DNA from: Caldisphaera sp.
GTDB lineage: Archaea > Thermoproteota > Thermoprotei_A > Sulfolobales > Acidilobaceae
Assembly (NCBI GenBank): GCA_049971805.1
Contig: JBMFKU010000008.1
Span: 1 to 54,616 of the forward strand
Direction: 5' to 3'
Length of the DNA stretch: 54,616 nt
Shown here: positions 23,398 through 36,884 of the stretch, one piece after another
Layout: every line of letters begins with the position of its first letter
How positions within the stretch are numbered: the first letter of the stretch is position 1
Made by a program: the position numbers and the translations under genes
Notes under the pieces: generated by a model
What the model was told of the DNA's origin: nothing
Database searches by the model: none
The model's input: the letters and a program-made list of their open reading frames with translations, nothing else

Positions 23398-24665
23398 AAA
23401 GACCACCTGGAAATCATCGATTCATAATTTGGTAGATCAAGAAGTCCATGTCCACTTAAATTAAAAACAATCGTTTTCTTTTCTTTAGTTTTTTTCAATT
23501 CCATTGCCTTATTTATAACAGCTTTAATAGCATGAGCTGATTCCGGTGCAGGTATAATTCCTTGAGATTTAATAAATAATTTTGCAGCATCAAATATTTC
23601 TTTCTCGCTGTATTCTTTCCATTTAATAATTCCCTCTTTTATCAATAGGCTTAAAGTTGGTGCTATTCCATGATATCTCAAGCCACCAGAATAAATGGGG
23701 GGAGGAACATAATTGTTTCCTAAGGTAATCATTTTTATCAAAGGTAATAAGCCGGCAGTATCTGCAAAATCATATCTATATTCACCTTTACTGAACTTAG
23801 GTACTTCTTCTGAACCAACTGCAATATATTCTTCTCCAATTTTATTACCTATAAATGGATAAGTAAACCCACCAAAATTGCTACCTCCACCAACACAACC
23901 AATTAATATGTCTGGATTTTCTCCAATTTCTTCTAGTTGAGCCTTTGTTTCTAAGCCGATTATGCTTTGATGTAATAGAGCAACATCTAATACGCTTCCA
24001 ACTAAATACTTATATTTATTTTTTAAAGCGTATTCTATTGCTTCGCTCATTGCTATGCCTAATGAGCCAGGATGATTTTCATTTTCTCTAATAAGTTTGT
24101 TGCCAATTTCAGTTATATTTGATGGACTTGGATAGACATCAGCACCATATAGTTTCATAATAGTTTTTCTCATTGGTTTTTGTTCATAGCTAACCTTTAC
24201 CATAAAGACTGTAGATTTCATATTGAATAGAGACGAAGAAAATGCAACAGCAGTTCCCCATTGCCCAGCCCCAGTTTCTGTTGTTACATGATTAATTCCT
24301 TCATTTAATGAGAAGTAGGATTGGGCTAGTGCTGTGTTAATTTTGTGAGATCCAGTTGGAGTTGCCCCTTCATATTTAAAATATATCCTTGCTGGAGTGT
24401 CAAGTAATTTTTCTAAACTCTTTGCTCTCATCAAAGGCGTTGGTCTTCCCAAAATAGCATATTTTTCTCTTAATTCATCAGGAATTTTAACATATCTTTC
24501 TATAGTAAATTCTTGTCTTAAAATCTCTTTTGGCATGATTTCTTTAAGTAATCCGATTCTAGAAAACTCGGAATTAGGGGGATCACGAGGAGGAGACAAG
24601 GGTTTTGGAAGATCAGGTATTATATTATACCAAAACCCTGGAATTAAATCTTCATTACTTACCAT
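23394..24665 (-). CDS. trpB: Tryptophan synthase beta chain, TrpB2 type
   Basis: [22 protein letters not shown] (PLP Lys), [37 protein letters not shown]; start taken at ATG 24665. Confidence 0.95.
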
Positions 24666-24673
24666 TGGCGCAC
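24659..24673 (-). other. Putative trp leader mini-ORF GTG-CGC-CAA-TGG-TAA (MRQW*) overlapping the trpB ATG
   Basis: SD AGGTGG at 24684-24679 is 5 nt from this GTG but 13 nt from the trpB ATG; last sense codon is Trp. Confidence 0.5.
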
Positions 24674-24709
24674 AACAACCACCTTTCAAGTAAATTATAA
24701 TATAAGGGA

Positions 24710-24769
24710 ATTATAAACTTTACTAAATAATATTAAAAATAAAAGATTTATTAAAGGAAAGTTTAAATA
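24710..24769. promoter_or_regulatory. Divergent archaeal promoters for trp (minus) and aro (plus) operons
   Basis: AAAG-TTTATAAT on minus (24717-24710) and GGAAAG-TTTAAATA on plus (24762-24769), each about 30 nt before an SD. Confidence 0.65.
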
Positions 24770-24802
24770 GTAGGATTGTAATATAAACTTAGAGGTGTGG
24801 AT

Positions 24803-24850
24803 GTGATGGAGTTCCAATGGGGCGAGGGTATGATGCCCAGCCAATATTAA
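24803..24850 (+). other. Putative aro leader peptide MMEFQWGEGMMPSQY*
   Basis: SD GAGGTG at 24792-24797, GTG 5 nt later; contains Phe, Trp and Tyr; the transketolase ORF is its -1 frame. Confidence 0.55.
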
Positions 24851-25605
24851 GTGAGTTTAGCTCGTTGTCTTCTGTCCAGTTTGATTTTGAGAAAATATTT
24901 GAAAAAATGGTTGAAACAAATTCTCGTGTGACAAATACATTAAATGGGCTGATGAAAGATATTAATAATTTTCACAAAGATTCGTCGTTCTCATCATTAA
25001 ATATACTAATAGCTTTGTATGAATATTGGATACCCAAAGGGAATATACAGAGAATCAATAGATCTGTAATACTCAGTAAAGGTCATGCAGCACCTGCATT
25101 ATATGCTTTGCTAGCAGAAAAGGGTTTAATAAGTAAAGAAGAACTTAATTATTTTGCTTATCCAAATTCAAGGCTTCAATCTCATCCAGAAGGAAATAAA
25201 GTACCAGGCATTCTGTTTTCCACTGGTTCATTAGGTCAAGGCCTATCAGTAGCCAATGGATTGGCTTATGCATCTAAATTAAACCAGGAAAAAAGAGAGT
25301 TTGCCGTTATACTTGGGGATGGAGAGCTTGATGAAGGCCAAATATGGGAATCTATTGCAACATCGTACAACCTTAAGATTGACAATGTTATTGCAATTAT
25401 AGATAGAAATGGATTTCAGCTCTCTGGTCACACAGAAGAGATAAAAATTAAAGAACCAATTAAGAAAAAATTTGAATCTTTTGGATGGTACACAATAGAA
25501 ATTAATAATAATTTGAATGAGCTTATCTTGTCTCTAGAATTAATGTCTGAAATAAAGGGTTTACCAAAAGCAATAATTGTTAAATCAATGCAATCTTTTA
25601 GGTGA
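24817..25605 (+). CDS. Transketolase, N-terminal subunit (start uncertain: 24817 or TTG 24865)
   Basis: ILSKGHAAPALY, LQSHP, STGSLGQGLS, GDGELDEGQIWE TPP motif, IDRN. Confidence 0.9.
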   Translation: MGRGYDAQPILSEFSSLSSVQFDFEKIFEKMVETNSRVTNTLNGLMKDINNFHKDSSFSSLNILIALYEYWIPKGNIQRINRSVILSKGHAAPALYALLAEKGLISKEELNYFAYPNSRLQSHPEGNKVPGILFSTGSLGQGLSVANGLAYASKLNQEKREFAVILGDGELDEGQIWESIATSYNLKIDNVIAIIDRNGFQLSGHTEEIKIKEPIKKKFESFGWYTIEINNNLNELILSLELMSEIKGLPKAIIVKSMQSFR

Positions 25606-35552: not shown

Positions 35553-35596
35553 AATCTTTAAGTTTATTAGATCATTAATATTTTTTGATATAAAAG

Positions 35597-35638
35597 TTTA
35601 AATATAAGTTCTAATTCTATATGATGTAAAAAGAGGTG
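35597..35638 (+). promoter_or_regulatory. Promoter (AAAAG-TTTAAATA) and SD GAGGTG about 155 nt upstream of ask
   Basis: TATA 35597-35604, SD 35633-35638; same geometry as the aro promoter. Confidence 0.55.
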
Positions 35639-35644
35639 GAGTGG

Positions 35645-35674
35645 ATGTCACACCAAACAGTAAATTTTGTATAG
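35645..35674 (+). other. Putative ask-asd leader mini-ORF MSHQTVNFV*
   Basis: ATG 6 nt after GAGGTG; CAC-CAA-ACA; its -1 frame (35641-35796) is open for 51 codons and ends in an ATGA overlap with ask. Confidence 0.4.
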
Positions 35675-35792
35675 TTTTTAAAAAATTAGATAGTGTAATT
35701 TTTATAGGATTTGGTAAAAATGTATTGTGTAAGTTGGGTTTAATGTTTGTATCTCGTATCTTATTAAAGTTTCTCATTGGAGGTGCCTTGAT

Positions 35793-36884
35793 ATGAGTTA
35801 TGCTATTATAAAAATTGGTGGTTCTTTATTAGAATCTCATAAATCTTACTTAGAGGTTGCAAATTATATTAAAGAATTTAAAAGAAATAGTAACAAGCAG
35901 CCATTTGTAGTAGTTTCTGCATTAAAGGAAACAACCGATTTATTAATAAATGCATTTAATAAAAAAGACAGGTCGATATTAGATGAGTTCTCACAAAAAT
36001 ACTTAGATGTAGCATATAATTTTGGCGACAACAAACTTGTTGTTTCGATTAATGAACAACTGAATAAACTCTATAAATTTTTTTTGTATAATTTAAATTA
36101 TGGCATATTGCTTTCTTTTGGAGAAAAAATCAGTAAGTTAATACTATCATATGCATTAGAAATTAACGATTTGAAAGTTAAAGAAATTAGTGCAGAAGAT
36201 TATATTATAAGTGATGAGAATCAAGGTGATGCAGCTGCAGACTTAGAAGCGACAAAAATTAATTTAATGAATTTAGTAAAGATATTAAATGGTGATGAAA
36301 TTCCCATTATAGAAGGTTTTATTGCTAAATCTCACAAAGGCAATGTAACCACATTAGGAAGAGGAGGATCTGATTATACAGCATCTATTATTGCATATTC
36401 AATAAACGCGGGATCTATTTATTTAGTTACAGATGTACCCGGCATTTTTACTAGCGATCCTAAAATAGTTAAAAATGTAAAGATAGTTAAAGAATTAAGT
36501 TATGAAGAGGGTATCGAGGCTTCAAATTATAAAGTAAAGGGATTGAATCATAAAACATTTCTTCCTTTAATAAATACTAATATAAAGGTCTTTATTGGAA
36601 AATGGAATAATTTTAATACAGTAATTCATAATGAATCAAGAATTAATGGAAAAATAAAATTAATAGGTTATAAACAGGATAATAATGGCTATTGCTTAGG
36701 TCTTATTGGCAAAGGTATAGAAAAAGAAAAGTTTGGAGAAAAAATAAAAAATGCTTTAGCATATAACAATTCTTACCAAATTATATCTGATAATAGCAGA
36801 CCATCGGTTTCAATTAGAATAAGCAAAGAGAATTTTATAAATACTATCAATTATTTGCACGAGGTATTAATAGGTGACGAATAA
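35793..36884 (+). CDS. ask: Aspartate kinase
   Basis: IKIGGS, VVVSA, LSFGE, TTLGRGGSDYTA, TDVPGIFTSDP, LSYEE. Confidence 0.92.
   Translation: MSYAIIKIGGSLLESHKSYLEVANYIKEFKRNSNKQPFVVVSALKETTDLLINAFNKKDRSILDEFSQKYLDVAYNFGDNKLVVSINEQLNKLYKFFLYNLNYGILLSFGEKISKLILSYALEINDLKVKEISAEDYIISDENQGDAAADLEATKINLMNLVKILNGDEIPIIEGFIAKSHKGNVTTLGRGGSDYTASIIAYSINAGSIYLVTDVPGIFTSDPKIVKNVKIVKELSYEEGIEASNYKVKGLNHKTFLPLINTNIKVFIGKWNNFNTVIHNESRINGKIKLIGYKQDNNGYCLGLIGKGIEKEKFGEKIKNALAYNNSYQIISDNSRPSVSIRISKENFINTINYLHEVLIGDE

Follow-up and report, generated by a model that had tools for sequence, protein, structure and literature searches.

In bacteria, the attenuators trpL, ilvL/ivbL, hisL, pheL and thrL contain a short leader open reading frame (ORF) in which cognate codons report the supply of charged tRNA. 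Changes of reading frame serve as sensors as well: the +1 frameshifts of prfB/RF2, which has a Shine-Dalgarno (SD)-like stimulator, and of antizyme are autoregulatory, and in dnaX an SD-like element located about 10 nt upstream stimulates -1 frameshifting. Termination-reinitiation coupling at overlapping stop and start codons occurs in both archaea and bacteria. To our knowledge, bacterial-type attenuators and T-boxes are not known in archaea, and ribosome-level sensing of single amino acids is still mostly an open question there. Here we describe a set of very short leader ORFs, referred to below as mini-ORFs, in front of the trp, aro and ask-asd operons on a stretch of 54,616 nucleotides from Caldisphaera sp. 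("the window"), and in front of the ilvB, pheA and chorismate mutase genes elsewhere in the same genome.

The process that these mini-ORFs bring to mind has been described as a translational error. In starved Escherichia coli, Gallant and co-workers observed leftward frameshifting at hungry codons, in which the A site is left empty for want of aminoacyl-tRNA and the P-site tRNA moves back one base, with no downstream stimulator (PMC5009743, PMC8211752). A passage of the 2016 review states that no functional trans-frame products of hungry-codon frameshifting were known, and others mention RF2 and polyamine effects and a 5' SD stimulator of -1 frameshifting (PMC5009743). As for archaea, fucA1 of Saccharolobus solfataricus is the sole -1 case in the list given by a 2021 review (PMC8211752).

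Six leaders of one design

Six leaders in the genome to which the window belongs (code G000) share one design. In each of them, a mini-ORF with an early stop contains a codon, here called the slip codon, that is preceded by a copy of its own first base and followed by a codon for a product of the operon's pathway: Trp for trp; Phe, Trp and Tyr for aro; Thr for ask; Ile for ilvB; Phe for pheA; and Tyr for chorismate mutase. An earlier note on this DNA had reported the trp, aro and ask mini-ORFs, each with an SD and a start codon, and all three are present in the sequence as written. Its two central claims, that the codon after C-CAA specifies a pathway product and that the productive ORF lies in the -1 frame, have gained ground: ilvB, pheA and chorismate mutase show the same codon rule, and the -1 relation holds for all six leaders. 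The chance product for the cognate codons, computed post hoc, is 2.5e-7. It should be noted that the evidence on the leaders is sequence comparison, that related genomes are not independent samples, and that part of the statistics is post hoc.

Three properties characterize the design. Firstly, the base before the slip codon is fixed. Genome-wide, 13.1% of 6603 in-frame CAA codons are preceded by C, versus 6/6 at the leader sites; with the count restricted to the three sites absent from the earlier note, the corresponding chance is about 2e-3. The codon before the leader CAA is variable (CGC, TAC, AGC, CAC, TTC, CTC) and always ends in C, and GAA or GAG sites always follow a G. Since the preceding codon varies and its last base does not, the constraint acts on the nucleotide and not on the amino acid, and a repeated base is what a P-site tRNA would require for re-pairing one base back, with positions 1 and 3 kept and position 2 mismatched. 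C-CAA, the form that had been proposed, is not the only one, because G-GAA, G-GAG and, in ask leaders of related genomes, A-AAA also occur. The sites do not match the slippery heptamer X-XXY-YYZ; they read C-CAA-N, G-GAA-N or G-GAG-N, and A-AAA-AT is present only in the ask relatives. Pairing with the anti-SD (GGUG with NNCC before AA) was considered as the cause of the conserved C and set aside, since it involves two constant positions only and leaves the G-GAA sites unexplained.

Secondly, the -1 frame is open. In trpB, transketolase and pheA it is the enzyme ORF itself. In ask, ilvB and chorismate mutase it is a start-less bridge of 30-70 codons, ending at the enzyme start, from 15 nt before it to 26 nt after it and often in an ATGA or TAATG overlap. 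Shuffled bridges were open with P = 0.011-0.096 in each of 15 leaders. Thirdly, every slip codon is preceded, at a distance of 8-17 nt, by an SD or an SD-like element. The cognate codons are single at each site, with at most three sites per leader, and do not form tandem runs.

A proposed mechanism

The comparisons strongly favour the view that these leaders constitute a conserved regulatory device. We consider it likely that this device works by starvation-driven -1 frameshifting at the hungry codon, which would switch the operon on. The ribosome would start on the very short leader ORF, either at an SD near the 5' end of the mRNA or, in the family with the code f13, which is taken to be Sulfolobaceae, at a 5'-terminal start codon. 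Within 1-12 codons it would encounter a slip codon for the Gln, Glu or Lys tRNA, with its repeated base, and then a codon for the end product of the operon's pathway. If the cognate charged tRNA is plentiful, the ribosome would read on to the nearby stop and the enzyme genes would remain untranslated. If it is scarce, the A site would stay empty, and we infer that the P-site tRNA would then re-pair one base back, keeping positions 1 and 3, and so enter the -1 frame. In trpB, transketolase and pheA this frame would lead directly into the enzyme, and in ask, ilvB and chorismate mutase the bridge would carry the ribosome to the enzyme start, where it would terminate and re-initiate. The upstream SD or SD-like element probably promotes the backward slip.

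The trp, aro and ask leaders

The trp mini-ORF (Table 1) has its stop 2 nt past the ATG of trpB (24665..24663), which is in the -1 frame relative to the mini-ORF and 14 nt from the SD. A -1 slip would place this ATG in the A site. The succession of start, one codon, CAA, TGG and stop, with AGGTGG 5 nt upstream, is kept in 4/4 genus orthologs, and an x-Q-W-stop leader was found in G002, G005, G006, G036, G028 and G039 (G002, G003, G005 and G006 being same-genus relatives). In family f13, xxC-CAA-TGG with trpB in the -1 frame is present at 29/30 loci, the remaining one, that of G052, not having been resolved by the script. The codon preceding the trp CAA takes the forms CGC, TAC, AGC, CAC and TTC, the last base being C in every case.

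The aro leader had been described with one Trp site. The C-CAA-TGG is there, but two more sites, for Phe and Tyr, had been missed. The ATG of the transketolase N-terminal subunit (24817) is in the -1 frame of the mini-ORF, and the orthologs of this protein in the four genus relatives are 66-70% identical. The mini-ORF is kept in 5/5 genus loci as M-E/G-F/Y-Q/K-W-G-E-G-M-M-P-S-Q-Y-stop. Its 34-nt overlap with transketolase is almost invariant across the five genomes, and the rare changes respect the leader frame: the one in G005 is synonymous in the leader frame and replaces Tyr by His in the enzyme frame, and the one in G006 turns TAT TAA into TAC TAG, keeping both Tyr and the stop. Site 1 reads G-GAA-TAC, G-GGG-TTC or G-GAA-TTC in the genus relatives, and the GAGG upstream of site 3 is invariant in the genus, its counterpart in family f13 being GGTGG, GGTGA or GAGGGA. 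Both the Trp and the Tyr site are present in 5/5 genus loci and in 30/30 loci of family f13 (C-CAA-TGG and C-CAA-TAT), and 20/30 of the latter also have G-GAA-TTC (Phe). In the aro leaders of G031 and G008, C-CAA-TAT is the sole site; it is located at the end of the leader and reads directly into a conserved transketolase motif.

In the case of ask, the -1 ORF of 51 codons with an ATGA overlap that the earlier note had described is present (35641-35796, with ask starting at 35793). In 5/5 genus genomes this frame has no stop between the SD and the start of ask and no SD-served start of its own, while the other two frames contain 6-10 stops each. The bridge peptides have diverged among the five genomes, and those of the relatives contain no ATG and no start near the SD. 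The bridge terminates with an ATGA overlap or else 9-20 nt beyond the ATG of ask, and shuffled ask bridges were open with P = 0.011-0.052 per genome. The mini-ORF of the genus relatives reads MMK[HR]QTK[MI][LI]xx-stop, and the leaders of all four add A-AAA-ATG or A-AAA-ATT (Met or Ile). An antisense gene under the bridge was considered and rejected: the antisense strand is open in some genomes, but its longest stretch in G006 is 23 codons. Taking the three operons together, the presence of the motif in orthologous leaders, which had been named beforehand as a check, was found in 5/5 aro, 4/4 trp and 5/5 ask loci of the genus. Among the ask homologs of 16 other genomes, the device is clear only in G015 and G019 (C-CAA-ACG), and the bridge of G015 has 71 codons. 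Upstream of ask-like genes of G028 (L032) and G031 (L035) there are mini-ORFs that begin with M-E-H (G-GAA-CAT) and whose -1 frame is open to the gene start.

Part of this arrangement is what constitutive translational coupling would produce, in which the SD loads ribosomes that re-initiate at the overlapping ATG and no amino acid is sensed, TGG being, as the earlier note had cautioned, an automatic by-product of any ATGG start. The ATG is indeed contained in CAATGG, the trp leader ends directly behind it, and ATGA or TAATG overlaps are common at the ends of the bridges. However, a gap of about 70-200 nt separates the mini-ORF stop from the gene in ask, ilvB and chorismate mutase, the aro leader runs 31 nt beyond the ATG to its Tyr site, and G003 does without this ATG. 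Moreover, the Thr, Ile/Val/Leu, Tyr and Phe codons cannot arise from an ATG. We therefore regard coupling alone as very improbable. The earlier proposal of a slip or a re-initiation into the -1 frame has to be narrowed: its layout of hungry codon and -1 frame is borne out by the comparison, but plain re-initiation cannot explain ask, ilvB and chorismate mutase.

Further leaders in the same genome

G000 was scanned, blind to function, for mini-ORFs of 2-30 codons with GGTG at 5-8 nt that lie outside called genes and at most 300 nt from a downstream gene. The scan yielded 59 mini-ORFs. Pfam was run on the genes that follow 20 mini-ORFs beyond the three of the window; two of these genes, ilvB and pheA, are amino-acid biosynthetic, and both have the design. 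No common mini-ORF pattern was seen for the other 18 genes (epimerase, cyclase, CBS, MFS and others, two of them without a Pfam match). A second scan, directed at bridges, added chorismate mutase, with the leader MSFQYI-stop and the site C-CAA-TAT (Tyr). In three genus relatives this leader is MEYQY-stop, in which G-GAA-TAC is joined by C-CAA-TAT or C-CAA-TAC; the bridge is open in 4/4 and ends 9 nt past the start in the relatives. More permissive genome scans returned mostly out-of-frame mini-ORFs at the 5' ends of genes and were discarded as evidence.

The pheA gene of G000, which encodes PDT and ACT domains, has the leader MEFII-stop with G-GAA-TTT (Phe). The -1 ORF enters the PDT domain as early as residue 3 in G000 and G006, right after an in-frame TAA, so that about 17 conserved domain residues are without an in-frame start; the ATG of the leader is the only SD-served start. 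A separate observation concerns G059, where a prephenate dehydratase gene at about 8800-9700 of its contig has two overlapping PDT matches and a repeated peptide stretch, a pattern that suggests an internal duplication or a broken gene.

The ilvB gene of G000 (a thiamine pyrophosphate enzyme of 570 aa) has the leader MQSQI-stop with C-CAA-ATT (Ile), and no stop interrupts its -1 frame between the SD and an ATGA overlap with ilvB. This leader contains three perfect 27-nt tandem repeats (L084:1405-1490, contig C1) that are in frame with the -1 bridge and each encode LVGHNFITH. Each repeat is complementary to the SD and AUG of ilvB, and the fold has z = -2.9. According to this fold, a ribosome passing along the bridge would unmask the start, and one stalled in the mini-ORF would not reach the repeats. 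Folds of ten leaders, with energies for 37 C and hosts that are presumably thermophiles, gave z values from +1.7 to -2.9 and no mutually exclusive terminator/antiterminator hairpins common to them, nor did single-sequence folds contain a recurrent 3' structure after the slip sites. Except for the masking fold of G000 ilvB, the ten leaders are without a consistent masking or attenuator structure, in agreement with the earlier note, which had seen no attenuator hairpins.

These results bear on the possibility that the ribosome stalls without changing frame, as on a classic leader peptide, and that the pause alters mRNA folding or transcription termination in such a way that the enzyme is translated from its own SD and start, the openness of the -1 frame being incidental. 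Stalling would make use of the cognate codons, and it is consistent with the presence of a separate, normally spaced SD at each of ilvB, ask and chorismate mutase, with the stable fold that masks the ilvB start of G000, and with the T-runs that follow several leader stops. On the other hand, it leaves unexplained that the start-less -1 ORFs are open in every lineage, that a C before CAA is obligatory, and that conserved domain residues of pheA have no in-frame start. Furthermore, no consistent alternative hairpin or masking fold was found, and a ribosome halted in the ilvB mini-ORF of G000 could not reach repeats 2 and 3. Stalling without a frameshift is thus an unlikely explanation, and we favour a -1 shift at the hungry codon.

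The design in other families of the order

The earlier note had looked at one genome, and its design extends beyond the genus to several families of the order. Leaders of ilvB with the same build are present in four further families. Their hungry site reads C-CAA-GTC in G036, C-CAA-ATT in G038 and G-GAA-TTG (Leu) in G032, and the leader of G028 and G039 is MELQVR-stop. The same build is found in four loci of metagenome-assembled genomes (MAG) titled 'MAG: Saccharolobus sp.' and 'MAG: Ignisphaera sp.', and the locus titled Saccharolobus has the same ilvB leader as one member of family f13. The -1 bridge of ilvB is open in G000, G005, G036, G039, G028, G038 and G032, in those four MAG loci and in 29/29 loci of family f13, and 4/40 of the ilvB bridges are without any ATG, GTG or TTG. 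The ilvB counts leave out the loci L092 and L093, which show 41% identity, the paralogs at L094-L105 and a bacterial match, L113; genus trpB paralogs (L162, L172) and weak transketolase matches in G001 and G004 are likewise left out of the other counts.

In family f13, all 29 ilvB leaders conform to (VKK)MIGD-x-x-LQ-[V/I], in which C-CAA is followed by a Val codon only (15 loci), an Ile codon only (13) or both (1). Thus, taken with the Leu codon of G032, the hungry codon varies only within the cognate set of the pathway. The -1 frame is open up to between -15 and +20 nt of the ilvB start, while the frame of the mini-ORF contains 2-8 stops between the slip site and ilvB (L114-L142). These leaders also keep an internal GGTGA 10 nt before the CAA.

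The his operon of family f13 (hisC-hisG, L284-L313) has a leader in which A-TTG-CAC-CAA-CCN is invariant (30/30), with hisC in the -1 frame. In several of these genomes, TTG-CAC-CAA recurs in the trp and aro leaders. The his leader may be a related variant of the device, in which the initiator tRNA on TTG would have to slip back onto ATT.

Such strict conservation, of 9-12 nt in 30/30 his leaders and, in several of these genomes, in trp and aro leaders too, could also point to an operator bound by a protein or by RNA, with the frames a coincidence. The candidates are CCAATGG, a palindrome that the earlier note had suggested as a protein-binding site, and TTGCACCAA, which the trp, aro and his leaders share in family f13; the presumed promoters are immediately upstream of these sites. 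However, CCAATGG occurs 7 times in the window against 4.9 expected, and 24/100 shuffles reach 7. The bare heptamer is not enriched; the excess over chance lies in the design as a whole and in how well it is conserved. The leaders of ask, ilvB, pheA and chorismate mutase, four of the six, do not contain CCAATGG, and G003 breaks it and yet keeps the leader ORF. Neither the cognate codons, nor the early stops in frame 0, nor the open -1 frames are predicted by an operator, to which we assign a very small chance, and the suggestion made for CCAATGG is not upheld.

The interrupted frames might formally be due to a change at the RNA level, such as transcriptional slippage or editing, or to assembly errors or pseudogenes. 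Nothing specific speaks for this, apart from its being available for any interrupted frame. There is no homopolymer run at the sites, and the same interruption recurs across many complete, single-contig genomes. Twenty RNA runs match the ilvB leader of one family f13 species; all are assembled contigs and hence uninformative on transcription starts or expression. Four of these contigs (7.5-15 kb) span the whole ilvB stretch without ends, joints or indels, which argues weakly against RNA-level changes, because contigs drop rare variants. Explanations of this kind are the least probable of those considered here.

Observations that do not fit

Several observations weigh against starvation-driven frameshifting. 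Firstly, some pertain to the slip itself. Re-pairing of the tRNA from CAA onto CCA, or from GAA onto GGA, leaves a central mismatch, and the folding of the leaders is not consistently stable, as seen from the z values given above. Translation of trpB and transketolase might begin independently, at the in-frame ATG or GTG of the site, and the pheA genes of G002 and G036 have possible in-frame starts. The +1 frame likewise lacks stops in 23/29 of the family f13 ilvB loci, sometimes with a TAATG overlap at its end, which a -1 model does not need. As a separate matter, a +1 slip may also be productive in these loci.

Secondly, the sites are not uniform. In G003, aro site 2 is C-AAG-TGG and a GTG replaces the 'ATG' of transketolase, which makes it an exception to the slip-site rule; the same replacement indicates that the ATG within CCAATGG need not be an initiation codon. 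In family f13 the 'Phe' codon of aro is a Leu codon in 9/30 loci, and the site is absent in one more. The cognate His codon of the his leaders is codon 2, the codon after CAA being Pro, and to fit the model these leaders would have to use their start codon as the slip codon. His is not cognate for aspartate kinase, so that the G-GAA-CAT mini-ORFs of G028 and G031 fit the model poorly. No device was found at ilvB of G013 or at trpB of G032.

Thirdly, the bridge scan, run without an SD requirement, does not by itself set the slip sites apart. It counted 6 slip/-1, 4 slip/+1, 13 control/-1 and 13 control/+1 matches in G000, and 12, 7, 11 and 15, respectively, in G059. The only gene recognized as amino-acid biosynthetic among the 12 slip/-1 matches of G059 is ilvB, the others with a Pfam annotation being MoaC, spermidine synthase and PheRS-alpha; the match of its +1 list that Pfam annotates is an ArsB gene. 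Because the background of the scan is similar to the controls, the argument rests on function, cognate codons and conservation, and not on scan counts.

Genes and genome setting

The window is contig C8 of a genome of 1.52 Mb with 31% G+C, and the features on which the analysis is based are listed in Table 1. That trpE is found downstream places trpB at the head of the trp operon. The aro operon comprises nine genes, is divergent from trpB and runs to about 32980. In this genome, 313 of the 1413 called genes have a GGTG that ends 5-8 nt before the start of the longest ORF, and the starts of all three mini-ORFs of the window show this SD spacing, which is the norm of the genome. ARAGORN reported 32 tRNAs and no tRNA-Gln(UUG), Lys, Trp or Tyr, so that its detection is clearly incomplete.

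Table 1. Leader elements and associated genes in the window
Feature	Position	Strand	Basis or remark
trpE	19897-20655		downstream of trpB
trpB-like gene, first of trp operon	23394..24665	-	Pfam PALP; in -1 frame of leader
trp leader mini-ORF GTG, CGC, CAA, TGG, TAA (VRQW-stop)	24659..24673	-	sequence
trp slip site C-CAA-TGG (Trp hungry codon)	24662..24668	-	sequence
Shine-Dalgarno AGGTGG of trp leader	24679..24684	-	4/4 genus orthologs, 5 nt before mini-ORF start
TATA-like box TTTAAATA of presumed aro promoter	24762..24769	+	sequence; in four genus orthologs, 23 nt before GAGGTGG
Shine-Dalgarno GAGGTG of aro leader	24792..24797	+	sequence, conservation
aro leader mini-ORF MEFQWGEGMMPSQY-stop (possible start GTG 24803)	24806..24850	+	34-nt overlap with transketolase N-terminus
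aro site 1, G-GAG-TTC (Phe)	24808..24814	+	sequence
aro site 2, C-CAA-TGG (Trp)	24814..24820	+	sequence
transketolase N-terminal subunit, first aro gene	24817..25605	+	Pfam; orthologs align from residue 1; in -1 frame of leader
internal SD-like GAGG, possible frameshift stimulator	24824..24827	+	14 nt upstream of the site-3 slip codon
aro site 3, C-CAA-TAT (Tyr), then leader stop codon	24841..24850	+	sequence
TATA-like box TTTAAATA of presumed ask promoter	35597..35604	+	same in 3/4 genus relatives; TTTATATA in G002
Shine-Dalgarno GAGGTGG of ask leader	35633..35639	+	5/5 genus genomes
ask leader mini-ORF MSHQTVNFV-stop	35645..35674	+	sequence
ask slip site C-CAA-ACA (Thr)	35653..35659	+	5/5 genus genomes
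ask bridge ORF, -1 frame	35653..35796	+	ATGA overlap with ask; open from ahead of the SD, frame starting at 35641; 51 codons (35641-35796)
ask (aspartate kinase) and asd (aspartate-semialdehyde dehydrogenase)	35793..37939	+	Pfam

The spacer between the divergent trp and aro operons (window 24690-24816) is 127 bp long and AT-rich, and both presumed TATA boxes lie inside it. The divergent arrangement is kept in 3/4 genus relatives and is lost in G003.

Three further places in G000 show related layouts at other genes. On contig C18, an MEF-stop mini-ORF (L265:1-140, G-GAA-TTT) has a 26-codon -1 frame that ends on the start of an Amidohydro_2 gene with no obvious role in amino-acid biosynthesis. 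On the minus strand of contig C1, a 144-codon ORF without a Pfam match or an in-frame start (L267:1251-1685) lies upstream of a UbiD-like gene, and its 5' end is overlapped by a mini-ORF, MELKK-stop (G-GAA-TTA), in the +1 frame. On the minus strand of contig C18, the -1 frame of an SD-led mini-ORF of 19 codons (L062) extends for 54 codons until its ATGA overlaps an MFS transporter gene. The match of this gene to Pfam begins at profile position 39, which may mean that the gene is split, or that it too is reached through a change of frame.

Significance and comparison with known systems

A new type of sensor for amino acids appears to be present in these leaders. A full-text literature search found no description of such leaders, although most subscription journals lie outside its coverage, so that absence is unproven. 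Judging from the leaders at hand, it is on balance probable that archaea of the Sulfolobales type, among them the family to which the laboratory model species belong, use one modular hungry-codon -1 switch for at least seven pathways, namely those of Trp, the common aromatic pathway, Phe, Tyr/chorismate mutase, the Asp family, the branched-chain amino acids and His.

If this is true, hungry-codon frameshifting would here have its first natural and selected use, and the switch would be an archaeal counterpart of bacterial attenuation. The sensing mechanism would be general and readable from sequence, a 'translation error' would become a regulatory principle, and the archaeal cases of -1 frameshifting would rise from the one listed in 2021 to dozens per clade. 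Annotation would also change, both for the N-termini of TrpB, transketolase, PheA and HisC and for the 'orphan' ORFs of 30-70 codons before ask, ilvB and chorismate mutase. For applications, the leaders would offer a compact, tunable part for amino-acid-responsive expression in thermophiles. Because the same leaders are present in a family with genetically tractable species, these ideas are directly testable.

The leaders described here resemble bacterial attenuators in that a short leader ORF with cognate codons precedes an amino-acid operon. However, they have one to three single cognate codons and no runs of them, no terminator/antiterminator hairpins were found in their folds, the host is an archaeon, and the read-out would be a change of frame into an enzyme or bridge ORF. 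Like RF2 and antizyme, they would let a slow A-site codon decide between early termination and the productive frame, and with RF2 they share an SD-like element upstream. On the other hand, the shift would be -1 and not +1, and the signal would be the supply of a sense-codon tRNA instead of a release factor or polyamines. Moreover, RF2 and antizyme control the sensor's own gene, whereas the leaders precede several biosynthetic operons.

Overlapping 0 and -1 ORFs, the downstream one without its own start, and an SD-like 5' element are also found when the leaders are compared with dnaX (A-AAA-AAG, with a 5' SD and a 3' hairpin) and fucA1. The leaders differ from these in that no X-XXY-YYZ heptamer and no 3' structure were found, in that the site is in the first codons of a mini-ORF, and in that the efficiency of the slip would presumably be set by amino-acid supply. 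As in termination-reinitiation, the stop of the bridges overlaps the enzyme start as ATGA or TAATG or is no more than about 20 nt away from it; what is different is that the upstream bridge has no start of its own and would be enterable only from the mini-ORF. Finally, the leaders would share with the hungry-codon frameshift of E. coli a vacant A site and a single P-site tRNA that slips by -1. In E. coli this was a translational error on test constructs, whereas here it would be a conserved, selected switch.

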